The translations under genes and the position numbers were made by a program. A stretch of DNA of 64,000 bases, from contig MFKU01000010.1 of NCBI GenBank assembly GCA_001781095.1, positions 14,254 through 78,253 of the forward strand, written 5' to 3'. Numbering within the stretch: the first letter of the stretch is position 1; the number at the start of each line of letters is the position of its first letter. This DNA comes from Candidatus Kaiserbacteria bacterium RIFCSPHIGHO2_01_FULL_53_31. Lineage in GTDB: Bacteria > Patescibacteriota > Minisyncoccia > Phycocordibacterales > Phycocordibacteraceae. The notes under the pieces were generated by a model. The model was not told the DNA's origin. It made no database searches and saw only the letters and a list, made by a program, of their open reading frames with translations. This document shows positions 3,838-60,650 of this stretch, piece by piece.

Positions 3838-4359
3838 TCACCGAGCGACGAAGAAAAGACCGATGGCGGGAGCGACGAACCACCAGAAGAAATATTCTTT
3901 GGGCAGGAAGAGCAGATCGATCGCAGGCGAGAACTGATAGATGGAGGAGACCGGAAAGACGTGATACGCGAGCGCAATGATAAAGGCCGCGCCGAGGAAC
4001 GCGAGTACGACGAGACCGAAAATTCCTATATACAGGAAGTCCGAGACGACCACGCGCCGCAGGATGATATAAAACGCGATGACAAGCGCGAGATACAGAC
4101 CTATATTTGCGAAAAGCGCGGTGACAGGAGGTTGCGTAGGCAGAAGCGACGTGTAGGGGAAAGCGACATAGAGCGCGTATGCGGCATAAAAAGCGAGCAA
4201 CACCGCGACGAACGGTCCGCGGCCGATGTACGATGCAAACAGGAGCAACACACCGAGCAAAATGAGGATGATGAGAAAATCACCTGCCATGCCCCACGCT
4301 GAAAGCGCGGTGTTTGTTGCAAGCGTACTCACCTCTGCGAGACTTGTGCTAGCGGGCAT
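3838..4359 (-). CDS. hypothetical polytopic membrane protein
   Basis: 173 aa, about five hydrophobic segments; no recognisable motif. Confidence 0.5.
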   Translation of the reverse strand: MPASTSLAEVSTLATNTALSAWGMAGDFLIILILLGVLLLFASYIGRGPFVAVLLAFYAAYALYVAFPYTSLLPTQPPVTALFANIGLYLALVIAFYIILRRVVVSDFLYIGIFGLVVLAFLGAAFIIALAYHVFPVSSIYQFSPAIDLLFLPKEYFFWWFVAPAIGLFFVAR

Positions 4360-4377: not shown

Positions 4378-5493
4378 TTAAAGCCCTTCGCTCTTTAAGT
4401 CCTCAATTGCTTTGTGCGCCTTACTCGAGAGCTTATGCGGAAGCGCCGCTTCGAGACGGATGATAAGATCGCCCCTCGATTCCGCTCGGGGTGAACCACC
4501 AAGAGGAACGCCCTTGCCGCGTATGCGCAGTAATTCCTCCGCGCGTTTCATCGGAGGGATCTTAACCTCGAGTACCTTCCCTTCCAAAGTCTCAATCGGG
4601 ACCGTGGTGCCGAGGAGCGCATCGGTAAGCTTGACCGGCAGATCCATCATGAGATTTGATTCCTCACGACGGAAGACTGGATGCGGCTTCACGTGCACCT
4701 TCACATAGAGATCTCCAGCGATACCGCCTTTCACCGCCTCGCCCTGCTGCGGGAGACGAATCATCTCGCCGTTGTCTATACCAGCCGGAATGGAGATTTG
4801 AATTTCTTGTTCCTGGCGTCTCACACCGCGGCCTTTGCATCCCTCGCACTTCTCCTTCGGGATCCTGCCGCTGCCCTCGCAGACCGTGCAGGCACGAACG
4901 CTGGTGAATTGTCCAAGGAGCGAGTTGCGCGTCTCATGCACGCGACCGCTGCCCGAGCAGGTAGCGCAGGTCTCGAGATCGGTACCGCGCTTCGCGCCGT
5001 TCCCTCCGCACACTTCACAGACCGAGACCTTCGCGATGAGCACTTTGCGCGCGGTGCCAAACACCGCATCCTTAAATGAGATTTCGACATCGATGGAGAT
5101 ATCACGTCCTCGTGCTACGCCTCGAGGTGTACCCCCGCGAGAGCTGCTAAATATGTCGCCGAAAATATCTCCGAAATCGAATTCCATTCCGCCCTGACCG
5201 AATCCCTGCTGGAATTGGCTGAAATCGAATCCGCCGAATCCTTGTCCTGCTTGCCCCGAGTCTGTCGAGGAACCGTGCCCGCCGGCAAATGCCTGACCAT
5301 ACGTGTCATATTCGCGGCGCTTCTTATCGTCGCTCAAGACGGAATACGCCTCCGTAATCTCCTTAAACTTTGACTCGTCGGTACCGCCTTTGTCGGGATG
5401 GTACTTGTGCGCGAGCTTCCGAAACGCTTTCTTAATATCGTCCTGCGACGCTTTCTTATCGACCCCAAGTACTTTGTAGTAATCTTTTGTCAT
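4378..5493 (-). CDS. dnaJ: chaperone DnaJ
   Basis: J domain with HPD (KYHPDK), Gly-rich linker, four CxxCxGxG zinc-finger repeats. Confidence 0.93.
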
Positions 5494-5533
5494 ATGCGCT
5501 CTATAATACGCCGTCTTAGAATTGTATGCAAAA

Positions 5534-5564
5534 AGCGGCGATGGAGGCTCTCCTCCACCGCCGC
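5534..5564 (-). terminator. strong hairpin/terminator immediately after the small ORF stop
   Basis: AGCGGCGATGGAGG-CTCT-CCTCCACCGCCGCT (13/14 bp stem), followed on the minus strand by CTTTTTGC. Confidence 0.55.
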
Positions 5565-5795
5565 TCAGACCTTATAGCTCACGCCTAACTCAAGCATCCA
5601 GTTGCCCTGCTCGTCACATGGATCGATGCACAGTTCCTTGATCACATGCGTCACGGCACCGTTGCAATACGTTATCGTGAGTTCTCCCTTCTCCAGCTGT
5701 TCGCGTTTGAATTCAAGAAATGCCTCATAGTTTGTCCTTGGCACCTTCTCGCTAAAAACGAGAAATCCAGCGCACCATCCTTCGACCGTGTACAT
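5565..5795 (-). CDS. small Cys-containing hypothetical protein (76 aa) with its own SD
   Basis: ORF between dnaK and dnaJ. mRNA upstream reads GGAAGGGGGCACAAAA-ATG. Four Cys residues. No recognised family. Confidence 0.45.
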
Positions 5796-5889
5796 TTTTT
5801 GTGCCCCCTTCCTGCGGCATTCTACTCTTTGGCCAAGATGAGGTCAATCAAAACACCGCGCCCCTCTGGGGCGCGGTGTTTTGAACTAT

Positions 5890-26546: not shown

Positions 26547-29384
26547 CTACCGGACTACTAGATTGATAATTTCCCCCGCCACATACACGATCCGCGTTGG
26601 CTCTTTACCCCCGAGTGCCATCGCTACGGCAGCAATTTTACGGGCCGCGGACACGGCATCAGCCTCGGGCGCATCTGGTGCGAGTGTTATCGAGCCGCGG
26701 CGTTTGCCGTTGACCTGCACCACAACCTCGATTTTAGTCGATACAAGAAGCTTCTCATCAAATTCTGGCCAGAGAGCGGTATGTATTGACTCTGTGTTTC
26801 CAAGCACTTCCCAAAGTTCTTCGGTAACATGCGGCGCAAACGGTGCTAACAATCGAAGATATTTGCTCCATTGTTCTTCTCCGATTGCCCCCTCCTTTTC
26901 CACGGCATTCAAGAAGATCATCATCTGGCTAACCGCCGTATTAAACTTGAAAGCCTCAATATCACTGCCGACCTTACGGATAGTCTCGTGCAAAAGAGTC
27001 TCGAAGCCCTTAACTGGCTCTTTGCGTACACGCTCGCGTAGATTCCAAAGCCGCTCGATGAATCGCGCAGTGCCCGCGATGGAGCTTGTGCTCCAAGCAG
27101 TCGTATTCTCGAACGGGCCCATGAACATCTCGTACATGCGGAAAGCATCAGCGCCATATTCCTCTACGACGTCATCCGGATTAATGACATTGCCGAGGCG
27201 CTTGCTCATTTTGCGTCCATCCTCAGCAAGGATGAATCCAAGGAATTCGAGTCGTGCAAAAGGTTCTGACGTACTCACCACACCAATGTCATAGAGGAAT
27301 TTGTGCCAGAACCGTGCATAAATAAGGTGACGAACCGCGTGGTCACCTCCGACGTACACATCCACCGGCGCCCAATACTTCTCTTTTTTCGATGACACGA
27401 GTTGATGTGCCTCGTGTGGGTCCATAAAGCGCAAGTAATACCAGGATGAACCAGCCCACTGCGGCATTGTATTGGTCTCGCGCTTCGCTGACCCACCGCA
27501 CTTAGGACACTTTACATTTACCCAGGCATCTATCTCTGCGAGTGGTGACTCTCCCGTCCCGGTCGGTTCGTAGGATTCAACTTCAGGTAGTACCACGGGC
27601 AAGTCTTCATAGGGTACGGGCACGACACCATCTTTAGGGCAGTGGACCACTGGAATCGGTTCGCCCCAGTAGCGCTGACGCGAGAAAACCCAATCGCGGA
27701 GCTTGTATCGAGTCACCTTCTTCCCTCCTACGGCTGCAACAATCTCGTCTTTAGCCTTTTCACTCTCCTGTCCATTAAACTGGTCTGAATTAGTAAGTAT
27801 TCCAGGTTCTGTCCAGACAAAATCATTATTATCGAGCAGATTGCGAGTGAAATCTCCCTCAAAAACGGTGAAGAAATCTTTTAGCTCATCTCTTTTCTTC
27901 CAGACGACCTCATGTAATGCTGCTTCCTTTTCATCCACAAGATCTCTCTCTTCGTTTTCAAGTTCAAAAAAGACGTAATGGAAATGCGCCCATCGGTTCT
28001 GTTTCTTCACGCGGTGGTAGAAGAATGTATTTATCATGACCTCTGGACGCTCGATATGTTTGAGATTCTTGTACCCTGTTTCTTCCCTTATCTCACGCCG
28101 CGCCGTCTCGACGTGATCTTCGCCATCATCAATGCCGCCAGTCACGAGCCCATGCATGAGTACATTTTTCCAGCTGATACAGAGATACGAATCGTCTTTA
28201 GGGTTCCGAACAATTGCACAGACTGCTTCGCGCTTCACGATCTCTTCGTCAGGTCGCAGTCTGGCATCACTTTCCTCCACTGCAACAAACTTAGGCTCCA
28301 CGACATGACGTACGGGTAGATTAAATTTCTGCGCGAATTCGAAATCGCGTTCGTCGTGTGCCGGCACGGCCATAATGGCGCCCGTGCCGTATGAGCCAAG
28401 AACGTAGTCAGCAACGAAGACAGGAATCTCTTCTTTTGTTGCTGGATTGATCGCCGTAACACCTTCTAGTTTAACCCCTGTCTTCTCCTTCCCTTCTGAA
28501 CCACGTTCAATTTCAGTTTTAGAAAACGCTGCCGTAACATACTCGCTCACTTCATGTGCATTCGTGATGTGCCCGCTAGTAGAGAGTTTCTCAATGAGCG
28601 CGTGTTCGGGCGCAAGTACTAGATACGTTGCACCAAATATCGTATCCGGACGCGTCGTGAATACCGATACTGTCTCCTCCCCCACTGCGAAGTTAATTTC
28701 TGCACCCTCTGAACGTCCAATCCAGTTGCGCTGTGCTTCTTTAATATGCTCTGGCCAGTTAAGTTGATCTAGGTCTTTGAGCATCCGGTCAGCATAATCA
28801 GTGATCTTCAGCACCCACTGCGGTAACTTCTTTTTTATTACCGGCGTTCCACAACGTTCACAGACGTTTCCATCAAGGTCCTCATTAGCGAGTCCCGTCA
28901 TGCACGAAGGACACCAGTTGATCGGCTCATCTGATTGGAATGCGAGCCCGTGTTCGAGCATCTTGAGGAAGATCCATTGTGTCCAATGGTAGTAGCTTGG
29001 ATCGGTCGTATTGATCTCTCGCGACCAATCATAGTTAAAGCCAATCTTCTCGAGTTGCGCTTTGAACGTCGCAATGTTCTGCTCGACTGCCTTTCGCGGA
29101 TGCGTCTTGTTCTTCAAGGCGAAGTTCTCGGCAGGGAGACCGAAGGCATCCCATCCCATAGGGTGCAGTACCGAGAAGCCGCGCATCTTTGAGAATCTTG
29201 AATAGATGTCAGTTGCGATATACCCCTTTGGGTGACCAACATGAAGTCCCTCACCAGACGGGTACGGGAACATGTCGAGCACATACTTCTTCTCTTTCTT
29301 TGAATCCTCTTCTGTTTTGTATAGATCGAGCTTCGCCCATTTTTCTTGAGCTTTTTTCTCTATTTCTGAATGGTCGTACGCCAT
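26547..29384 (-). CDS. leuS: leucyl-tRNA synthetase with embedded Nudix hydrolase domain
   Basis: HVGH and KMSKR motifs, editing domain. After VPAHDERDFEFAQKFNLPV a ~120-aa insertion carries a canonical Nudix box GGIDDGEDHVETARREIREETGY; 945 aa. Confidence 0.9.
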   Translation of the reverse strand: MAYDHSEIEKKAQEKWAKLDLYKTEEDSKKEKKYVLDMFPYPSGEGLHVGHPKGYIATDIYSRFSKMRGFSVLHPMGWDAFGLPAENFALKNKTHPRKAVEQNIATFKAQLEKIGFNYDWSREINTTDPSYYHWTQWIFLKMLEHGLAFQSDEPINWCPSCMTGLANEDLDGNVCERCGTPVIKKKLPQWVLKITDYADRMLKDLDQLNWPEHIKEAQRNWIGRSEGAEINFAVGEETVSVFTTRPDTIFGATYLVLAPEHALIEKLSTSGHITNAHEVSEYVTAAFSKTEIERGSEGKEKTGVKLEGVTAINPATKEEIPVFVADYVLGSYGTGAIMAVPAHDERDFEFAQKFNLPVRHVVEPKFVAVEESDARLRPDEEIVKREAVCAIVRNPKDDSYLCISWKNVLMHGLVTGGIDDGEDHVETARREIREETGYKNLKHIERPEVMINTFFYHRVKKQNRWAHFHYVFFELENEERDLVDEKEAALHEVVWKKRDELKDFFTVFEGDFTRNLLDNNDFVWTEPGILTNSDQFNGQESEKAKDEIVAAVGGKKVTRYKLRDWVFSRQRYWGEPIPVVHCPKDGVVPVPYEDLPVVLPEVESYEPTGTGESPLAEIDAWVNVKCPKCGGSAKRETNTMPQWAGSSWYYLRFMDPHEAHQLVSSKKEKYWAPVDVYVGGDHAVRHLIYARFWHKFLYDIGVVSTSEPFARLEFLGFILAEDGRKMSKRLGNVINPDDVVEEYGADAFRMYEMFMGPFENTTAWSTSSIAGTARFIERLWNLRERVRKEPVKGFETLLHETIRKVGSDIEAFKFNTAVSQMMIFLNAVEKEGAIGEEQWSKYLRLLAPFAPHVTEELWEVLGNTESIHTALWPEFDEKLLVSTKIEVVVQVNGKRRGSITLAPDAPEADAVSAARKIAAVAMALGGKEPTRIVYVAGEIINLVVR

Positions 29385-45520: not shown

Positions 45521-45583
45521 CTTTTTGTAATGAATTGTTAGAGCGTCCGGCTTGGACGGAAGCTGTAGCTCGTGCGTTCGGCG
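45521..45583. repeat. degenerate duplicate of the rpoC 3' end (direct repeat, copy A)
   Basis: 24/24 identity to 46334-46357 (spanning stop plus 16 nt of 3' UTR), then ~80 percent identity for ~40 nt; reads ...AERTSYSFRPSRTL* against the true rpoC ...AERTSFNIRPSRTL*. Confidence 0.75.
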
Positions 45584-45597
45584 GGAATACCGTGGCA

Positions 45598-45993
45598 TTA
45601 TCGCTTCTTAGCGTTTCTGGAGTGTGACTTGAGCCAGGTAGCAATTACCGCGGCCTCAATCTTATCGGTTGTCACAGACAATACAAACGTCTCAACTGCC
45701 TTGTTCGTCGCGGTCAATACATGTCCATTTACAAAGAGAAACCGCGCGCACGCGGCAATACCCGTTCTCTTATTTCCATCCACAAATACGTGATAATTAA
45801 CGACGGCTTCGAGATAGACTGCCGCCTTTATAAATAGGTCGGGGTAGAGGTCTCGCCCGCCGAACGTAGCGCGCGGCTTGTTGGCGGCTGCAGCCAGGAG
45901 ATGCGGATCACGGACGCCATGGGAGCCGCCGGTCGCATCGATAACCTCAGAGTGGATAACGAGAATCGACTCTGCGGTAAGATACCGAATCAT
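45598..45993 (-). CDS. doc: Doc-family (Fic fold) toxin
   Basis: Fic/Doc motif HVFVDGNKRTG. Confidence 0.8.
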   Translation of the reverse strand: MIRYLTAESILVIHSEVIDATGGSHGVRDPHLLAAAANKPRATFGGRDLYPDLFIKAAVYLEAVVNYHVFVDGNKRTGIAACARFLFVNGHVLTATNKAVETFVLSVTTDKIEAAVIATWLKSHSRNAKKR

Positions 45994-46229
45994 TTTTTTG
46001 CAAGTGCTTCAAGCGCAGGACGATATCGTTTAATGAAACGACTCGTCCAGTCGAGCAGCTCAGTATCGATCATAGGCGCAGGATGCGACACTAAAAACCG
46101 TCGATGCTTTTCATCAATATCAAGCGCAAGCGGAGTCCCATGCCTGATGCCGAGAGCCTTTAGGGACCGCCTCGGAATCACAACAGCAATTGACGAACCG
46201 ACCTTAATTGCTTTTTGAAATGTTGCCAT
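45990..46229 (-). CDS. AbrB/MazE-fold antitoxin (Phd-equivalent)
   Basis: KVGSSIAVVIPRRSLKALGI swapped-hairpin signature; 4-nt overlap with doc. Confidence 0.65.
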   Translation of the reverse strand: MATFQKAIKVGSSIAVVIPRRSLKALGIRHGTPLALDIDEKHRRFLVSHPAPMIDTELLDWTSRFIKRYRPALEALAKK

Positions 46230-46349
46230 TTTCGTAAAGATTATTGATTATAACGCCATTATAATCGTTTGGACTGAGATGTCAACCGCTTCTTAATCTC
46301 CTGTACCGTATCCCGCTCCTGCGATGTTGATCTTTTTTGTAATGAATTG

Positions 46350-49300
46350 TTAGAGCGTTCTGCTTGGGCGGATGTTGAAGCTCGTGCGCTCTGCAGGGAT
46401 CGGCGCGGGGCGCTCGGCCTGAAGCTTCGCGATGTGTGCGAACTTTTTGCTTCCTGAGAATCCTGTGCCCGCAGGGATCAAGCGTCCGAGAATCACGTTC
46501 TCCTTGAGGCCGCGGAGACGATCCACACTGCCACGGAGCGCGGCATTGATGAGGATCTTCGTGGTCTGTTCGAACGAGGCGGCCGAGAGGAAGGATCGGC
46601 GAGAAAGCGCACTCTCCTTGATACCGAGCACAATCTCTTCGCTCTTCGGCGGCAGCTTGTTTGCTACATCCATTTCCTTCACCGCCTTTTCAAATTCCCA
46701 ATCCTCGACGACATCGCCGACTGAGTAGTCCGTGTCACCAGTGTTTGTAATCTTCACACGCGAGAACATCTGCTTCACCACCACTTCGAGGTGTTTGCGC
46801 GAGACGGACGCGCCCTGAAGCTCGTAGATCTTTGACGCTTCGGCGATGATATATTCCTGCACCACGGAGCGTCCCGCATACTCGAAGAGATCATCGAGAT
46901 CTGCCGAACCGTCGGTAAGGACCTGTCCCTTCACCACCGCATCACCCGCCCTCACCAAAGGCACACGTGGATACGGCGCGAGATATTCGTAGACTGAGCC
47001 GTCCTTCTTCCCTTGTCCGGCTGATGGTGCGACTACGACCACTTTCTCACGGCCTGCCTCTTTGATCTCGGTCACGAGACCATCGGATTTCGAGATAACT
47101 GCCGGATTTTTTGGTGAGCGTTTCTCAAAGACTTCTTCGACGCGCGGCAAACCGCTCGTGATATCGCCGCCGATCGACGCCACGCCGCCAGCATGGAAGG
47201 TGCGCATCGTGAGTTGCGTGCCCGGCTCGCCGATCGCTTGTGCGGCCACGGTGCCGACCGCTTCGCCCAAGTCGACAAGTTCTTGCGTCGTGAGGTCCAT
47301 ACCGTAACACGTCTGGCAGACGCCATACCTCGTCTCGCACGACATCGGTGAACGAGCAACGACCGATGACACCGACGCTGCGGCAGAAAGCGCCTCAGCA
47401 TCACCTGCCGAGAGGTATTGTCCGCGCTTGAAGAGCACCGTTCCATCGGCATCTTTTACATCATCTGCGAGCACGCGTCCGCGCAAGACTTCAGCGTAGT
47501 CGATCTGAATACCCGAGAAACTGGTACGATTGATATTCACGCCACGCTTCGTGCCGCAATCTTTTTCTGTCACGATAGAATCCTGCGCTACATCGAAGAG
47601 ACGGCGCGTGAGATATCCGGCCTTCGCGGTGCCAAGCGCCGTGTCGGTGAGGCCTTTGCGCGCGCCGTGTGTGGACATGAAGTATTCAATCGGGTTAAGG
47701 CCTTCAGAGAAGGAGGACGCGATCGGCACTTCGATAGTTTCTCCAGCGGTGTTCTGGATGAGACCTTTCATACCAGCCATCTGTGTCAAGTTGCCCATCG
47801 AGCCGCGAGCACCACTTCTCACCATGTCGGCGACCGAACCCATTGGATTCAACTCGAGAGCGACTTGCTCCTCGACTTCCTGCTTGGCGCCCTGCCAGAT
47901 CTCGATCGCCATGCGGCGTTTTTCCTCCGGCGCGAGAAGACCATTCTGGAAATCTTCTTCAATCTTCGCGACTTTAGCATTGGCCGCTGCGATGATGCGC
48001 GGCTTCTCCTTAGGCACAGCAACATCGTCGATAGCCCAGGAGACGCCGGATTTCGTTGCATACTCGAAACCGAATCGCTTGACCTTGTTCACAATATTCG
48101 GGACGGCATCGATGCCGTAGCGAAAGATGCAGTCATTCACGATGCGTGCGAGCACTTTCTTGGTAATCGTGTCGCCGATAAAAGGATAGTCAGACGGGAG
48201 TACGGTGTTGAAGAGCAGTTTCCCGACGGTCGTCTCGAAGACATGTCCCTCGAAGGCCGCGTACTTCTCCTTCCCCGCTACCGGCAGCACCTTGATCTTC
48301 GCCCGTCGGTCGATGGCCCCGTATTCGGACGCGAGAATAGCGGCATTCGGTGAGGCGAAATATTCGCCTTCGCCCTTTGCGCCATCCACCGCCTTGGTGA
48401 GCCAGTAGACGCCGAGAATAATATCGAGCGGCTTTCCGGTAAGCACGATGATGTCGCCCGAGCCCGGTTTCAAGATATTTTTATTTGCACTCATCACGTT
48501 CTTTGCTTCCCACTGCGCTTCTTCTGAGAGCGGAAGATGCACGGCCATCTGGTCGCCATCGAAGTCCGCGTTGAATGCGTTACAGACGAGCGGGTGCAGC
48601 TGGATAGCATCGCCCTCGATGAGCCGCGGGCGGAATGCTTGGATACCCTGGCGGTGAAGCGTTGGCGCGCGGTTTAGGAGCACGTATTTCCCCGCAATAG
48701 CCTCTTCGAGAATTTCCCACACTTCAGACACGCCGTCTTCGATGAGGCGTCCTGCACCGCGGATATTGAAGGCCAGTTCGCGTGAGAGGAGTCCCGCGAT
48801 GACGAACGGACGGAAGAGCTCGAGCGCCATGTGCTTCGGCAGACCGCATTCGTCGAGCTCGAGATCAGGACCGACGACGATCACCGATCGGCCCGAGTAG
48901 TCGACACGCTTACCGAGCAAGTTCTGGCGGAAGTAGCCCTGCTTCCCTTTCAGATAGTCAGCGAGCGACTTGAGCGGTCGGCGCTGCGCCGCCGTGAGCG
49001 CACCTCCCGAGGCGCTGCCCTTGCGAATAGAGTTGTCGAGGAGCGCATCCACCGCTTCCTGCAAAATGCGTTTCTCATTGCGCAGGATGACTTCCGGCGC
49101 GTGGATGTCGAGCAGCTTCTTAAGACGATTATTGCGATTGATGACGCGGCGATACAAGTCGTTCACGTCTGAGGTCGCGTGGCGGCCGCCTTCGAGTGCG
49201 ACCATCGGGCGGAGCGCCGGCGGGATGATCGGGATGCGCGTGAGGAAGAGCCATTCGGGTCGAATATGCGACGCGATAAGACCGGCGATGAGCGAGAGAC

Positions 49301-55167: not shown

Positions 55168-57120
55168 ATGGCTGGTTCTGAACTCTATGAAGGCCCGATA
55201 GCGATGACCCGCAAGGGTTTCGGCTTTTTTTCGATTGGCGAAGATAAAGAGGATCTCCTTATACCGCCTGAATCAACAAACCATGCCCTCTCGGGCGATA
55301 TCGTAAAGGTGACCCCCGCGGGAACATATCGCGACCCAATGGGAAAAATGCCGCCGCGAGAGGCTGGCACAGTAGTCGAGATCGTCTCGCGCGCCCGCGA
55401 GTCCTTCGTCGGTACACTCGTCCCATCTGAGGAACGGCCCGGAATCATTCTCCTCCAGCCTGACTACAAGCGGATGCATGTGCCACTCGAAGTGAGAGAT
55501 GCCCAAGATGCTCCTCTAGGCTATAAAGTCCTCGTTGAAATGAAGGGTTGGGACGACGATATTGCCTACCCATGGGGTGTCGTCACCGAGAAGATCGGCG
55601 AGGCTGGCGTGCATGAGACCGAGATGCGCGCGCTTGTCCTCGGCCAAGGATTCTCGAGTGACTTCCCTCCCGGTGTGATGAGTGACGCACACGACCTCGA
55701 GTTGAATGGCCGAACCCAAATCAAAGAAGAAGTTGCCAAAGGAACGCGTAGAGATTTCCGCGCTATCCCGACCTGCACCATCGACCCTTTTGATGCAAAA
55801 GATTTTGACGATGCACTCTCGGTGCGAAAGCTCGACGATGGGAATAGCGAAATTGGCGTGCATATCGCCGACGTCTCATTCTTCGTGAAGCCAAGCACAA
55901 ACCTCGACAAAGAGGCCTATGCCCGAGCAACAAGTGTGTACCTCGTCGACCGCACGGTGCCGATGCTCCCTGAGATTCTTTCAAATGACCTCTGTTCACT
56001 AAAGCAGGGTGAGGATCGCCTCTCCGTCTCTGCAGTTTTTACACTCGACAAAGACGCCAACATTGTGGACACGTGGTTTGGCGAGACTGTGATTCACTCT
56101 GCGAAGCGCTTTGTCTATGAAGAAGCTCAGGATGTCCTCGATAACGGCGAAGGGACGCTGCATGAAGAGCTCGCGCTCATGCTCGATCTATCGAAGAAGA
56201 TTCGCACCCGTCGTCAGGCGAAGGGTGCGATCGAATTCGACACCGTCGAAGTTAAGGTCGAGCTCGACCAAACCGGTAAGCCGATCGCGATTCGCTTGAA
56301 GGAGCGCAAAGCGACTAATCTCATGATCGAGGACTTCATGCTTCTCGCGAACGAGGCCGTGGCGAAGCATCTCTCAGATCTCACGAGTAATGGCGGCCCT
56401 CACTTCGCTTCGCTTTACCGCATCCACGATGAGCCAGACGCCGACCGGATCGAGAATCTAGCGAACCTTCTTAGGATTATGGGTTATCAACTTAAGACAA
56501 AAGCTGGAAAAGTCTCGGGCGCTGAATTAAATAAACTGCTCGATGCGGTGAAAGGCAAACCTGAAGAGTACCTCGTAAAGACAGCTACGCTTCGCTCGAT
56601 GAGTAAGGCAGTGTACGCGACACAGAACATCGGTCATTTCGGTCTCGCCTTTGATTTTTATACTCATTTCACTTCCCCGATCCGGCGCTACCCTGACCTC
56701 ATCATCCATCGCCTCATCAAAGCGCACGCCGGCGGCGACCTGATCACACCTACAGAAATGCAGGAGTTCGACAAACTCGCACTGCACGCATCAGAGCGCG
56801 AGGTGGCGGCATCCGACGCCGAGCGCGACTCAGTCAAGATGAAGCAGGTAGAATTTCTCTCGACAAAAATTGGCGAGACCTTTGACGCCGTTATCTCGGG
56901 TGTGACCGAGCGCGGTCTCTATGTCGAGGAGCAAACAACCCACGCTGACGGGATGATCATGATCCGTAATGTCGGTGATGACTATTTTGAATTTGACGAA
57001 AAGCATTACCGCCTCGTCGGCCGCCGCACGCACAAAGCCTTCCAACTTGGCGATCCTATCCGCGTCAAATTGATGGCCGCCCGCATCCCCGAAAAAGAAT
57101 TGGATTTTGTTCCCGCCTAA
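55168..57120 (+). CDS. rnr: ribonuclease R
   Basis: Cold-shock domains, RNB catalytic domain (IDPFDAKDFDDALS, HFGLAFDFYTHFTSPIRRYPD), S1 domain. Confidence 0.9.
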   Translation: MAGSELYEGPIAMTRKGFGFFSIGEDKEDLLIPPESTNHALSGDIVKVTPAGTYRDPMGKMPPREAGTVVEIVSRARESFVGTLVPSEERPGIILLQPDYKRMHVPLEVRDAQDAPLGYKVLVEMKGWDDDIAYPWGVVTEKIGEAGVHETEMRALVLGQGFSSDFPPGVMSDAHDLELNGRTQIKEEVAKGTRRDFRAIPTCTIDPFDAKDFDDALSVRKLDDGNSEIGVHIADVSFFVKPSTNLDKEAYARATSVYLVDRTVPMLPEILSNDLCSLKQGEDRLSVSAVFTLDKDANIVDTWFGETVIHSAKRFVYEEAQDVLDNGEGTLHEELALMLDLSKKIRTRRQAKGAIEFDTVEVKVELDQTGKPIAIRLKERKATNLMIEDFMLLANEAVAKHLSDLTSNGGPHFASLYRIHDEPDADRIENLANLLRIMGYQLKTKAGKVSGAELNKLLDAVKGKPEEYLVKTATLRSMSKAVYATQNIGHFGLAFDFYTHFTSPIRRYPDLIIHRLIKAHAGGDLITPTEMQEFDKLALHASEREVAASDAERDSVKMKQVEFLSTKIGETFDAVISGVTERGLYVEEQTTHADGMIMIRNVGDDYFEFDEKHYRLVGRRTHKAFQLGDPIRVKLMAARIPEKELDFVPA

Positions 57121-57191
57121 GTTAGGCGACACATCAATATTTCTATCCAGTCCATACTATATAGCGTACTACAAGTAAAACAACCACCGGG

Positions 57192-57220
57192 AAAGTTAGG
57201 ACATCGGATGTCCTAACTTT
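57192..57220. repeat. REP-like palindromic hairpin (left)
   Basis: AAAGTTAGGACATCGGATGTCCTAACTTT; overlaps the transposase stop codon. Confidence 0.7.
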
Positions 57221-57863
57221 TGTATTCCAGATAGTCGCTTTCTTGAGCAAGGCTTGGGTCATGAATAACTTCAACGATTGTCCGCTCATACTCTGACCGC
57301 GTCCCGAGCATTGGATTAAGCACATCGGTCCTAATAATTGACGGGAAATTTCGCACGCCCAAATAATCGAGATGACTGCTCCAGCGATAGTCGAGTAATG
57401 CTTCGAGAGCCTTTTTAGTATTTCTAACCTCGCCCGCGCGCCATTCTGGATGCACATAATCGAGAGGATTGAGATGTATATAAAATGGAATATAGAGAAA
57501 ATGCGCATCACGTTTTATTTGCACCTTGCGATATTTACCCTGCCAGAGAGCACCCGAGCGTTTATGCCGATTATTGAAATATTTTGTATAGCCCATATTA
57601 ATCTTTTGCATAAACAGAGAAATCCCATTCTCGATACGTTCTGTAACGAGCAGATGATAGTGATTCTTCATTAAGCAATACGAATGGATATCGACGAGTT
57701 GTTCACGAGCATGATCTTCGCGCCGCTCATTCAGAATGTAATTCGGCGTCGTGTTGCGATCATTTAAGGCATACAGGTTGTGAATGAAGCGGAGACGGTC
57801 GTGCTTGTCTGTAACGATATCTCGTTTCTCCACCCCACGCCCAATAAGGTGCCAGAATTCCAT
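57213..57863 (-). CDS. Y1 HUH transposase (REP-associated tyrosine transposase / IS200-like)
   Basis: HUH motif NHYHLLV; catalytic tyrosine region GYTKYFN; 216 aa. Confidence 0.7.
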   Translation of the reverse strand: MEFWHLIGRGVEKRDIVTDKHDRLRFIHNLYALNDRNTTPNYILNERREDHAREQLVDIHSYCLMKNHYHLLVTERIENGISLFMQKINMGYTKYFNNRHKRSGALWQGKYRKVQIKRDAHFLYIPFYIHLNPLDYVHPEWRAGEVRNTKKALEALLDYRWSSHLDYLGVRNFPSIIRTDVLNPMLGTRSEYERTIVEVIHDPSLAQESDYLEYKS

Positions 57864-57878
57864 TGCGTCATTATAGCT

Positions 57879-57908
57879 AAAGTTAGGACATCCGATGTCC
57901 TAACTTGT
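57879..57908. repeat. REP-like palindromic hairpin (right, inverted relative to left)
   Basis: AAAGTTAGGACATCCGATGTCCTAACTT; exact reverse complement of the left hairpin, 16 nt upstream of the transposase start. Confidence 0.7.
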
Positions 57909-57978
57909 GCATAATTCATGAGCTGGACAATCCTATCGAGGTCAGACTTACTGTTGCTTGCATCACTGAAAAAGAAAT

Positions 57979-58021
57979 GGATTTTATTCCTGCATAAAAT
58001 TAGAACACCGGAGGTCCAACT
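57979..58021. repeat. degenerate duplicate of the rnr 3' end plus a degenerate REP copy
   Basis: GAAAAAGAAATGGATTTTATTCCTGCATAA reads KEMDFIPA* against rnr KELDFVPA* (26/30 nt); followed by AATTAGAACACCGGAGGTCCAACTTT. Confidence 0.6.
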
Positions 58022-58351
58022 TTACTTTTGCAGTTTTCTTATGAGCATAATCATTTTCTGAATTACCCAAGATAGTCCCCCTGTAGCGCAGGTTACGAAT
58101 ATGAGCATCAACCATTGTATGGAACTAATTGTTTTAATTTCTGATCGGATTGTTCCATTACGCAACGTGTAGGTACAGAGCGTGCCATGCGGCCAAATCG
58201 ACAATTCCATTTTTGCACATCCGCCTTCCTCAAAAAATGAAGATCCGCTATATAGGCAGCGATGCTCCGATATCGGCGTAGCTAATCCCCAAAACATCGC
58301 GAGACCTACGATAAATGCTAACCCACTAATAATTAGACTTAAGCGTGTCAT
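58022..58351 (-). CDS. hypothetical membrane protein (109 aa), low-GC
   Basis: Two TM segments; AT-rich codon usage unlike its neighbours. Confidence 0.4.
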   Translation of the reverse strand: MTRLSLIISGLAFIVGLAMFWGLATPISEHRCLYSGSSFFEEGGCAKMELSIWPHGTLCTYTLRNGTIRSEIKTISSIQWLMLIFVTCATGGLSWVIQKMIMLIRKLQK

Positions 58352-58403
58352 CCGTTGAACATTGTGATGTTCATATTAATTAACTTCAGAGCGACCGTTT
58401 AAG

Positions 58404-60650
58404 TTACTTCGCAACAGCGACCGCTTCGTCGAACTTTACACTTAGGAGTTTTGAGACGCCATCCCCACCCATAGTGACGCCATAGAGGATCCCGGCGCGG
58501 CTCATAGTCTCGCGATTGTGCGTGATCACGATAAGCTGCGACTTCTTCGCGAGGTTTCCGATCATGTCGCCGTAGCGACGGCTGTTCGCTTCATCGAGCG
58601 AAGCATCGGTCTCGTCGAGGATGAGGAACGGTGGTGGGTTCACCTGACTCATGGCAAAGATGAGCGCAATGCTGGTAAGCGCTCGCTCGCCGCCCGAGAG
58701 CTGCATCAGGGAGCGCACCTTCTTCCGAGGAAGATTCACTGAGATTTCAATGCCGGCCTTACCCTTCGTAGCATTGGCGGAGAAGGGGTCGCTTGATTCT
58801 TCCAACTCTTCAGATTCGTCCAATTCCTCAACTTCGGGCTCTTCCAAAGTCAAACGTGCATTGCCACCGCCGAACATAAGCGCGAAATATTCGTTAAATG
58901 ATTCATTTACTTTCGAGAGACCCTCAGTGAAATGTTTAGCGAGTTCAGTATCCAAATCTTGAATGAGTGCACCCAAGCTCTCGGCCGATTTCGCGAGGTC
59001 GTCGAGCTCCCGCGCGAGAAATGTCTCACGCTCCGACACCTCTTTGTGCTCGTGACGGATCTCTTCGCCCGCACCGCCAGCTTCTTCGAGGCGAATCTTG
59101 ATTCGCTCAAGTTGCCGCGCGCGATCTTCCTGGCCGCTATGCTCGTCCTCAGATATCGACCCACGCGGTTCGTACGAGATCCCTTGAGTACCGACGAGCG
59201 CTACCACTTCCGCCTTATCGGTATCTAGCCGCCCCGTCAACAGTTTCAATTCGCGCTCGCGCGCATCCGCGTGCGTTACCTCACTTTCTTCATGCGCTTT
59301 CGTCTGGGCAAATTCGAGAATGTGCCGACGCAACTCCCTACCCGTCTCGTCGTATGCCGTAAGTTCTTCCCTCGCACGCAGGAGCGCAAGTTTCGCTTCT
59401 TCAAGATTCTTGGAGAGCATAGTTTCTTTTTCTCCTAATTTCTTCTGCTCTTCTTCGAGCGCATACACCGACTGCTCCTCATCGGTGAGCCGATCATCGC
59501 CGACGATAAACCTGTCGACGAATGCTTTTATCGTCGTATGTAACGACTTCAGCGCTGACAAAATGGCGTCCGATGTACTCGTCTGCCGGACTTGCCGTTC
59601 TGCTTCTTCAGCGAGCGCGACGAGCTCTTCTCGAGAGATGCGCGCATAGGGATCGGTGCCGATCTTCGTGCTGCGCTCCTTCGCCGCCGCCAACGCTCCC
59701 TCGATTCTCCCGAGCTCGCGTGCGAGCGCGCCCCGCTCGCTCGATAGGCGATCCGCCGTCGCCTCTGCCTTACGCACTACCTCGAGACGCTTAGCGCCCT
59801 CCGCATCGGTCGTGGCACGCTCCTCAATCGCCGAGAGCTCGGCACTTGCGGCGGCGAGCCGTCCCGTGGCCAAACGTTTCTCTTCGGCGACCTTCACCTT
59901 CTCTTCCGCTATGCGCGTGTCCTCGATCGAGAAGTACATCTGCGCGAGCGTTATAAGTTTCTTCCGTAAACTGTCGGCGCGTTCAAGCTTCTCAACTTGT
60001 CGCTCGAGGAAACGCAGATGCGGCGCGAGTTCGCGTCGAAGTGAATTCACCTGTGCGATGTTCACTTCAGTCTTCTCAAGCTTCCGTTGTGCTTCAGTCT
60101 TTTTGAATTCATAGACCTTGAGCCCGAGCGCGTCTTCGAGCATCGTACGTCGCTCGCGCGCATTCGCCAGAAGAATCCTATCAGCTTCACCCTGCGAGAT
60201 GATGTGGTGGCTCGTCTCGCCGATGTTGGCACCCGCCAGCAGTTCTTCGATATCGCGCAAGCGGACCTTCGACCCATTGATCGAGTACTCGCTCGTCCCA
60301 TCACGGTGTACTACACGCTCAATCACCACTTCATCAAAATCGATATTGAACGTGCGCTTCCCATCCGTTCCGCCATCCGCCAGCCGGCGGATTGGATTAT
60401 CAAAAACAATCGCGACCGCAGCGCGATTCGAACGAGGCACGGAATGCGACCCGTTGAAAATAAGATCTTCAGCGCGTTTGCCGCGCATGCTCTTCATCGA
60501 CTGCTCGCCGAGCGCAAATCGGAAGGCCTCGGCAACATTACTCTTGCCCGACCCGTTCGGCCCCACAATCGCCGTCGTGGCCGATGAGAAATCAAGTACG
60601 GTCTTCCGTACAAAAGATTTAAACCCGACGATCTCCAGTCGCTTCAACAT
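58404..60650 (-). CDS. smc: chromosome partition protein SMC, minimal 748-aa form without recognisable hinge
   Basis: Canonical SMC N-terminus (RLEIVGFKSF...GPNGSGKSN...DLIFNGS) and C-terminus (LSGGERALTSIALIFA...LILDETDASLD...ITHNRETM). Conserved rnc-smc synteny. Only ~450 aa of coiled coil between the heads. Confidence 0.8.
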   Translation of the reverse strand: MLKRLEIVGFKSFVRKTVLDFSSATTAIVGPNGSGKSNVAEAFRFALGEQSMKSMRGKRAEDLIFNGSHSVPRSNRAAVAIVFDNPIRRLADGGTDGKRTFNIDFDEVVIERVVHRDGTSEYSINGSKVRLRDIEELLAGANIGETSHHIISQGEADRILLANARERRTMLEDALGLKVYEFKKTEAQRKLEKTEVNIAQVNSLRRELAPHLRFLERQVEKLERADSLRKKLITLAQMYFSIEDTRIAEEKVKVAEEKRLATGRLAAASAELSAIEERATTDAEGAKRLEVVRKAEATADRLSSERGALARELGRIEGALAAAKERSTKIGTDPYARISREELVALAEEAERQVRQTSTSDAILSALKSLHTTIKAFVDRFIVGDDRLTDEEQSVYALEEEQKKLGEKETMLSKNLEEAKLALLRAREELTAYDETGRELRRHILEFAQTKAHEESEVTHADARERELKLLTGRLDTDKAEVVALVGTQGISYEPRGSISEDEHSGQEDRARQLERIKIRLEEAGGAGEEIRHEHKEVSERETFLARELDDLAKSAESLGALIQDLDTELAKHFTEGLSKVNESFNEYFALMFGGGNARLTLEEPEVEELDESEELEESSDPFSANATKGKAGIEISVNLPRKKVRSLMQLSGGERALTSIALIFAMSQVNPPPFLILDETDASLDEANSRRYGDMIGNLAKKSQLIVITHNRETMSRAGILYGVTMGGDGVSKLLSVKFDEAVAVAK

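Follow-up and report, generated by a model that had tools for sequence, protein, structure and literature searches.

A probable REPtron-like locus with a RAYT-class Y1 gene at the smc/rnr junction of Patescibacteria

The 64,000 nucleotides of Candidatus Kaiserbacteria bacterium RIFCSPHIGHO2_01_FULL_53_31 analysed here (GenBank assembly GCA_001781095.1, contig MFKU01000010.1, positions 14,254 to 78,253; the whole stretch is called the window below) carry a small gene for a Y1 HUH endonuclease between rnr and smc. The gene is bracketed by two matching palindromes. The locus is quite likely REPtron-like and would comprise one vertically inherited, domesticated class-2 RAYT-type Y1 gene that, together with its cognate hairpins, has become fixed between smc and rnr in a clade of Patescibacteria. 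A second copy of the rnr end beside it would then be the displaced ancestral terminus left by an old recombinational integration.

The Y1 enzyme and its palindrome family

The Y1 gene (57213-57863, minus strand) is an ATG open reading frame (ORF) of 216 amino acids, and its translation reads MEFWHL...NHYHLLV...YIHLNPL...YRWSS...LEYKS. The initial annotation had taken it for an HUH (Y1) transposase because of NHYHLLV and had suggested a check with the Y1_Tnp model, which the protein passed (Pfam PF01797, 36.9 bits against a cut-off of 23). The best NCBIfam model was REP_Tyr_transpos with 45.3 bits and E 8e-12. No second Pfam domain and no C-terminal domain resembling a helix-turn-helix (HTH) or DnaA_C was detected. 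A homologue search returned 1,498 proteins at E <= 0.001. The best 120 of these are 58-88% identical to the query and nearly all 210-230 amino acids long; the few among them with a named source belong to metagenome-assembled genomes (MAGs) of Patescibacteria. A fully identical protein is present in the MAG Candidatus Kaiserbacteria bacterium RIFCSPLOWO2_12_FULL_52_8, and a contig that carries this protein is 100% identical to the window across 16.8 kb. A scan of metagenome proteins gave relatives 30-60% identical among the matches listed, and plasmid and phage collections held only relatives of at most 33% identity.

An alignment of 19 homologues (59-86% identity) contains 66 invariant columns, which indicates strong purifying selection on the gene. 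H68-Y69-H70, W107-Q108, Y128-IHL-N132-P133 and R160-W-S-S163 are conserved in all 19, so that both the HUH motif and the single tyrosine Y128, the predicted catalytic residue, are invariant. YIHLNP is a Y---NP motif, which defines class 2 TnpAY1, the RAYT class (Quentin et al., PMC6006769). Compared by eye with Table 1 of the same work, NHYH, WQ, YIHLNP and SS (in RWSS) are the motif set of subclass 2.1, or TIRYT. An AlphaFold model of the protein reached a pLDDT of 62.6, with residues 1-115 modelled well. With this moderate model, Foldseek returned 2a6m, 2vjv, 2xqc and 4er8 as top matches of the TnpA-type fold at E 1e-4 to 1e-3; the matches at E <= 0.001 without exception, and almost all of the 30 best, were Y1 transposases of IS608, ISDra2, IS200 or Sulfolobus or the E. 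coli RAYT 4er8. An hhalign comparison with E. coli RayT (NC_000913.3) was weak (E 0.06, 19% identity over 80 columns) and aligned HUH, WQ and Y---NP in register. Taken together, the ORF is assigned to a Y1 HUH enzyme of the RAYT class.

Both ends of the gene carry the same palindrome. PAL1 (57192-57220) lies downstream, between the convergent rnr and Y1 genes, and holds the Y1 stop codon TAG (57213-57215). PAL2 (57879-57906) lies upstream and is a near-perfect palindrome matching PAL1. The unit is 27-29 nt long and has the form AAGTTAGGACAYC-N-GRTGTCCTAACTT. The window holds its 23-mer core two times, where 100 shuffles led to an expectation of 0.00. Each copy folds into a hairpin of 13 bp with a 3-nt loop (DNA dG -11.7 kcal/mol, z -5.4 and -7.9). 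The bracketing palindromes of the initial annotation were thus found as described, and over 28 nt they are 100% complementary to each other. Since each copy is itself a near-perfect palindrome, their inversion rests on one central base (G or C). The inverted orientation was therefore rejected as meaningful: it is one base here, and the copies are direct at the related loci L012, L047, L086, L104, L113 and L124.

Loci of relatives (numbered with the prefix L) were fetched by exact-protein look-ups and a metagenome scan. The same palindrome flanks the Y1 gene on both sides in all 11 loci whose protein is at least 59% identical. In ten more distant loci, at 35-49% identity, the palindrome is another one but again matches on both sides of the gene, for example CCTGTGGATAACCGACTTGCGAAGTCGGTTATCCACAGG in L086, TGATTGAAGTYSRACTTCAATCA in L100 and TTTATAGGTTTCCGAAACCTATAAA in L104. 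The palindrome is accordingly seen to co-vary with the Y1 protein across the relatives compared. Across 13 TAGGAC-type variants, double-sided changes affected 8 of the 14 stem pairs and 98.9% of the cells were paired, which none of 500 shuffles reached; the gene-flanking copies in this comparison had been chosen with a perfect-hairpin finder.

Copies also occur away from the gene. When one genome per species was scanned for GTTAGGACANNNNNTGTCCTAAC, 53 loci came up, of which 43 are in Patescibacteria. The other ten pattern matches (Variovorax, Pseudonocardia and others) were discarded as unrelated to the family. Those in Variovorax (L029, L044, L045, L051) share a palindrome GGGTTAGGACA(N5)TGTCCTAACCC at what is apparently one orthologous site, unrelated to the family in Patescibacteria. 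Most palindrome loci are lone copies with no Y1 gene within 8 kb, and some are doublets of about 60 nt, in which a degenerate second hairpin stands about 10 nt from the first. Flanking AA and TT are nearly invariant across the copies, and the two orientations of the central base are about equally frequent. Single relative genomes hold 3-5 exact copies on different contigs. The expectation that the repeats should be numerous was not supported, as no further copy is present in about 68 kb of this genome; the RAYT/REP configuration itself was confirmed as a REPtron layout, with a palindrome that co-varies with the protein and lone copies in relatives.

The lone copies fall into two classes. Those of the first stand directly behind a TAA or supply a TAG stop codon, as is the case for the Y1 gene itself and for rnr in L031. 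Those of the second lie in frame within essential genes, where they are read as ...VRTSDVLT...; such copies were found in leuS (L023, L042, L060, L061, L062, L065), recG (L019, L063), tsaD (L066) and argS (L059). The in-frame insert is often a doublet and encodes VRTSDVLT followed by GTSDV or GHPMS. The leuS of the window (26547-29384, minus strand) has no palindrome insert at that position. TAA and TAG close the palindrome in two frames, while the third (KVRTSDVLT) is open, and this holds on both strands. Copies therefore sit at gene ends or in frame inside genes. Classical REPs have also been described inside tRNA synthetase and repair genes (PMC3733652).

Two decayed copies accompany the intact pair in the window, as had been noticed before. 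The first (57996-58024) follows straight after the stop codon of the second rnr end, has 68% identity to the reference copy and has lost its folding (dG 0). The other is a half palindrome, CGCCTAAGTTAGGCG (57114-57128), which abuts the rnr stop, corresponds to the right half of a third full copy and forms a small hairpin of -5.4 kcal/mol. Within it, AAGTTAGG (57119-57126) overlaps the rnr stop codon. In L012 the full palindrome is present next to the rnr stop, and about 200 nt found there are deleted in the window. The half copy is accordingly interpreted as the surviving half of a third full palindrome after this deletion. Only these two intact and two decayed copies are visible in the ~68 kb of this genome.

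A hexamer TATAAT that resembles a -10 box (57870-57875, minus strand) was read from the sequence 6 nt before the Y1 ATG and 3 nt after PAL2. Such a hexamer is present at the matching place in L012, L047 and L166, and no Shine-Dalgarno sequence precedes the Y1 ATG. TATAAT may thus be a leaderless promoter of the Y1 gene overlapped by the palindrome. A scan for consensus promoters and terminators flagged neither the palindromes nor TATAAT and gave no -35 match for the latter, so that promoter and terminator roles are proposed only conditionally here. An Rfam scan of 56900-58500 gave a chance-level match only (IS009, 19.9 bits against a gathering score of 117). The region 57100-58400 has a GC content of ~0.42 with ~0.54 on both sides. 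The whole arrangement recurs unchanged in about 20 contigs of this species that were assembled independently, which excludes an assembly artefact. Two Logan contigs of the species (L080, L081) stop at the end of PAL1 or within ~2 nt past it, which suggests that assemblers break at the palindrome.

The smc/rnr junction and its duplicated gene ends

The Y1 gene is convergent with rnr (55168-57120, plus strand), which encodes an RNase R of 650 amino acids (Pfam RNB with 370 bits, OB and CSD domains). The other convergent neighbour is smc (58404-60650, minus strand). Its product has 748 amino acids in the window and 734-761 in relatives, the usual length of SMC being ~1,180. Y1 homologues 86, 76, 72, 71, 71, 69, 68 and 67% identical sit between smc and rnr and are likewise convergent with rnr. 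This order is found in 10 lineages (L011-14, L166, L015, L047, L031, L167, L020, L168), whose core genes are 60-86% identical and whose palindrome is the same or a variant of one or two bases. The gene lies elsewhere in L070 (69% identity, next to rpsB/tsf) and L169 (59%, next to secA). Each genome has one Y1 locus among the contigs fetched, and the window has one copy.

Empty smc/rnr sites were found in L162-L165, whose rnr is 77-81% identical to that of the window. The rnr and smc stop codons are 2 nt apart in L164. L162 has a GC hairpin terminator after the rnr stop and then a small ORF and smc. L163 has a gap of 421 nt, and in L165 a gdh gene separates the two. A search of contigs that carry the identical rnr gave no cassette-free allele. 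A rough rnr tree intermingles lineages with filled and with empty sites; it is star-like and weak, so that a single gain with losses and repeated gains are undecidable from it. The proposed comparison of the rnr downstream region in relatives thus supported an insertion through the empty sites and contradicted a recent one through the ten filled lineages. Since the same site is filled in divergent lineages and empty in other relatives, the cassette is regarded as an old, inherited insertion with a patchy distribution and not as a fresh event.

The direct repeat next to the cassette consists of the functional rnr 3' end (57046-57120, plus strand; 25 codons plus stop) and of a pseudo-end, LDNPIEVRLTVACITEKEMDFIPA up to its stop codon (57923-57997, plus strand), which was recognised by repeat comparison and positional homology. 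The copies share 72% identity over 75 nt, are in frame and retain the stop codon. A duplicate of the rnr terminus had been noted in the initial annotation and is real, but it extends over 75 nt and not 30, and it is the supposed duplicate that sits at the ancestral position.

Such copies are present in several lineages, always between PAL2 and the smc-side sequence and on the rnr strand. Their identity to the true end of the same lineage is 97% in L011/12 (~67-79 nt), 83% in L015 (~70 nt), 81% in L047 (78 nt), 86% in L166 (59 nt) and 89% in L167 (46 nt). They start at about -71 to -78 (CTCGGCGAYCC) in the window, L011/12, L015, L047 and L166, but not in L167. The distance from this boundary to the PAL2 foot is 16-18 nt in the window, L012, L015 and L047 and ~7 nt in L166. 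A GC-rich hairpin terminator and a small ORF follow the copy in L012, L047 and L166. In L012 and L047 this hairpin is the same CGCGGCAAGG... hairpin that stands behind the true rnr end in the empty site L162; the hairpin of L166 differs. Because the pseudo-end adjoins the terminator that follows the true end in L162, it is placed at the ancestral position. The functional rnr end beside the palindrome is accordingly taken to have come with the insertion or to have been created by it.

L047 additionally contains a copy of the smc end (84 nt, 86% identity), which begins immediately at PAL1. As this copy and that of the rnr end are collinear, ~0.5 kb of the convergent junction is present to either side of [17 nt-PAL2-Y1-PAL1] in L047; in their middle parts, the two junction copies are unrelated. 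L020 retains 44 nt of the smc-end copy, and L031 and L168 have neither an rnr-end nor an smc-end copy. An smc-end copy was sought in the window, L012 and L015 and none was found. Direct repeats of neighbour genes were also sought at ~60 distant Y1 loci, where only the palindromes repeat, except for L160. This distant locus (32% identity) has a direct repeat of 117 nt on both sides of the gene (~2806-2922 and 4036-4152).

The differences between true and copied ends are mostly synonymous. The ratios of synonymous to non-synonymous changes were 9:2 for smc and 8:2 for rnr in L047, 3:0 for smc in L020, 4:1 for rnr in L011, 3:4 for rnr in L015 and 6:3 for a copied rpoC end in the window, which is described below. 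This amounts to 33:12 when the rnr pair of the window is left out (5:10, mostly changes from GC to AT). The copies thus appear to have diverged largely as coding sequence, and most simply the true and copied ends would be alleles of different lineages joined by recombination. The rnr-end copy of the window is read as an old, decaying relic of the ancestral terminus.

ORF109 (58022-58351, minus strand; 109 amino acids) is omitted from public annotations and has hydrophobic N- and C-terminal segments. Eight distant homologues of similar size (E 2e-8 to 2e-4), also hydrophobic at both ends, share C32, E42, W53, P54, G56, C59, Y61 and G66, and the ORF is probably a real gene for a small membrane or exported protein. 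Its role as cargo, which had been considered, was dismissed because it lies outside the palindrome-bounded cassette, beyond the pseudo-end. It occupies a variable slot between smc and rnr in which L012 (5471-5776), L015 (~5556-5810), L047 (5472-5753) and L162 (~5490-5750) have a different small ORF, on the minus strand and with no Pfam match. The latter belongs to a conserved family with the pattern M..RPKF..GQ..F...R.W...W.Y.G..F, which is thus also present at an empty site.

Mode of integration and alternative explanations

A second gene end in the window is duplicated, as had been claimed. The last 17 codons of rpoC and 16 nt past its stop are repeated (45522-45588 and 46334-46400; 67 nt, 85% identity) and bracket a cassette of 745 nt (45589-46333). 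It encodes a Fic/Doc toxin (PF02661; 45598-45993, minus strand) and a MazE/AbrB-like antitoxin (45990-46229, minus strand). The non-functional rpoC-end copy adjoins the ancestral downstream hairpin. As this cassette contains neither a Y1 gene nor the palindrome, the rpoC and rnr loci appear to share a mode of integration and not a transposase. IS200/IS605-type enzymes are not known to make target duplications by their established mechanism. On these two grounds, the transposase targeting of gene termini that had been suggested for both loci was not supported. Repeats of 67-500 nt would be in keeping with a circular copy that integrates by one crossover, or with homology-facilitated illegitimate recombination. 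In genomes with convergent essential genes as little as 2 nt apart, presumably only insertions that duplicate the ends would survive.

Based on the known mechanisms of IS608, ISDra2 and the E. coli RAYT, a dimeric Y1 enzyme would recognise the hairpin that the palindrome forms in single-stranded DNA, such as that of a replication fork, and would cut and rejoin beside it through the tyrosine of YIHLNP. This may occasionally seed new lone copies. They would survive at gene ends, where they give stop codons and probably bidirectional terminators, or in frame in protein loops. The Y1 gene would no longer act as an insertion sequence (IS) and would stay at the smc/rnr junction across the clade. A single old recombinational event may have duplicated the junction (smc end, small ORF, terminator and rnr end; ~0.5 kb) around [17 nt-PAL2-Y1-PAL1], and the window would retain only the decayed rnr part. 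The duplication most likely stems from foreign DNA with homologous gene ends and not from Y1 chemistry; a Campbell-type single crossover of a circle or homology-facilitated illegitimate recombination could be the route.

An autonomous IS of the IS200/IS605 type that recently transposed to the rnr 3' end would account for the Y1_Tnp domain, the low-GC island (57100-58400), the hairpins at both ends, the empty sites in relatives and the other contexts of the 59-69% homologues in L070 and L169. This is very improbable, as there is one copy in 64 kb with no tnpB ORF, the motif is Y---NP and not the Y---Q of the IS200 type, and the end hairpins are identical palindromes instead of distinct left and right ends. 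In addition, the locus is fixed in all population samples, and such elements would not duplicate their target, least of all over 75-500 nt. A recent insertion right after the rnr stop does not agree with the same gene, palindrome and rnr-end copy at the same site in lineages of 60-80% core identity. It is also improbable that the palindromes are immobile regulatory elements of the host only, namely a bidirectional terminator of rnr and Y1 and an operator of the Y1 promoter, next to an enzyme with a palindrome-independent function. The position of PAL1 between convergent genes with T-runs after it on both strands would suit this, as would the -10-like box next to PAL2, the low copy number and a dyad symmetry fit for a dimeric double-strand binder. 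Still, lone copies are found far from any Y1 gene and in frame in leuS, recG, tsaD and argS, with presence and absence differing between lineages; doublets resemble REP pairs, and protein and palindrome co-vary across the family.

We likewise give little credence to a dedicated and still active integration, site-specific or catalysed by Y1, that uses gene ends as attachment sites and would have produced the rnr, smc and rpoC duplications. The nearly common boundary at -71 to -78 in five lineages speaks for it, together with its distance of 16-18 nt from the PAL2 foot in four of them (~7 nt in L166). The left-end cleavage site of IS608 lies at a distance of 19 nt, which is close to this value. 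In some lineages the pseudo-ends keep 81-97% identity to their own true ends, and most of the differences are synonymous. This points in the same direction, as do the intermingling of filled with empty sites and the presence of two such duplications in one 64-kb window. However, the rpoC case lacks Y1 and palindrome, no integrase is present and the cassette encodes Y1 alone. Other boundaries are seen in L167 (46 nt) and L020 (44 nt of smc), and a duplication is missing from L031 and L168. The window copy (72%, AT-biased changes) is a decayed relic, unlike identical att core repeats; moreover, contigs with identical rnr include no cassette-free allele and the star-like rnr tree is weak. More speculatively, and rather doubtful as a whole, small accessory cassettes such as the RAYT unit and the Doc/antitoxin pair might spread by recombination with the 3' ends of essential genes as attachment sites. 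A circle or a taken-up fragment would carry a copy of the end or ends, integrate by one crossover or by homology-facilitated illegitimate recombination, and leave a functional end and a displaced one whose divergence as coding sequence took place in another lineage; later precise loss through the repeats could follow. If true, this would explain the synonymous bias, the collinear double duplication of L047, why the two junction copies differ in intergenic content and why filled sites are intermingled with empty ones.

The REPtron-like reading with an old integration has to bear several points that weigh against it. The protein misses the cut-off of 80 of the NCBIfam RAYT equivalog NF047646 with its 45.3 bits. 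Searches of PDB sequences with the protein and with a 19-sequence profile gave no match even at E = 10, so that homology to solved structures is drawn from the fold search, and the model used for it is only moderate and poor around the helix of the catalytic tyrosine. The palindrome AAGTTAGGAC...GTCCTAACTT with its invariant AA/TT flanks is devoid of the canonical 5' GT[AG]G foot (GTAG/GTGG). Its copy number is low, with none outside the locus in the ~68 kb, and the orientation of the flanking copies is not conserved, being inverted in some lineages and direct in others. A dyad symmetry would also fit a double-stranded operator for a dimer, and covariation is no proof of a hairpin. Finally, the shared boundary and pseudo-ends that are closest to their own true ends require gene conversion or repeated events.

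The genomes of Patescibacteria are among the smallest and most streamlined of bacteria and contain very few repeats. A RAYT-class gene that seems to be kept there under strong purifying selection (59-88% identity, invariant catalytic motifs) suggests, given such tiny, repeat-poor genomes, that the pair of enzyme and palindrome is useful or at least very hard to lose. With one gene and few hairpins, it would be a minimal system for working out the function of RAYTs in their hosts. The layout of the palindrome with two closed frames and a third that is open on both strands would explain how a repeat family survives with almost no intergenic DNA. That the ends of essential genes are duplicated over long stretches around two unrelated cassettes may point to a general way of accepting DNA without damage to convergent essential genes.

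Comparison with known systems

The closest likeness is to the REPtrons, as in E. coli (rayT/yafM, 4ER8) and Pseudomonas (RAYT/REPIN). They also have a single Y1 HUH gene per genome region with its cognate palindrome on both sides and lone or paired copies elsewhere, which for the palindrome described here were seen in relatives, mostly behind genes and some intragenic (PMC3733652). Co-variation of protein and repeat is shared as well, and so is the class-2 Y---NP motif (PMC6006769); inheritance would likewise be largely vertical. The locus described here differs in its host, a lineage of Patescibacteria (CPR), in its near-perfect stem of 13-14 bp, the missing GT[AG]G foot, the variable orientation of the flanking copies and a handful of copies per genome instead of hundreds. 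In sequence, the protein is also remote, as shown by the 19% identity over 80 columns to E. coli RayT and the missed NCBIfam RAYT cut-off.

By eye, the motifs NH[YF]H, W[EQ], Y[IV]HLNP and a proximal SS match TIRYT (TIRtron; TnpAY1 subclass 2.1, Bertels group 1). These proteins likewise have more than 200 amino acids and a low copy number, and their inverted repeats can be self-complementary. However, Pfam found no C-terminal HTH (of the Bac_DnaA_C, HTH_23 or HTH_28 kind) in the Y1 protein, and the flanking repeat does not fit the TIR consensus GGGGWSAS. Members of subclass 2.1 are moreover described as having no REPs, but the repeat beside this Y1 gene belongs to a dispersed family of hairpins.

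The IS200/IS605 elements IS608 and ISDra2 provide the best structural matches and resemble the locus in the hairpins at both ends and the expected HUH and tyrosine chemistry, as well as, for the left end of IS608, in a cassette boundary 16-18 nt 5' of the hairpin foot. They are set apart by the single copy in 64 kb, the lack of tnpB, Y---NP, the identical end palindromes and the conserved synteny. Rickettsia palindromic elements (RPEs) and intragenic REPs are comparable as short palindromes in frame in essential protein genes of a reduced genome. In contrast to RPEs of 100-150 nt, the unit here has 27-29 nt (doublets ~60 nt) and is linked to a cognate Y1 gene.

In the RAYT/REP literature searched, no mention of Patescibacteria was found, and only unrelated papers were found there for IS200 in Patescibacteria. 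Thus, while the RAYT kind itself is known, the system is new in its host phylum, in its non-canonical palindrome, in its very low copy number and in its design of stop codons and an open frame.

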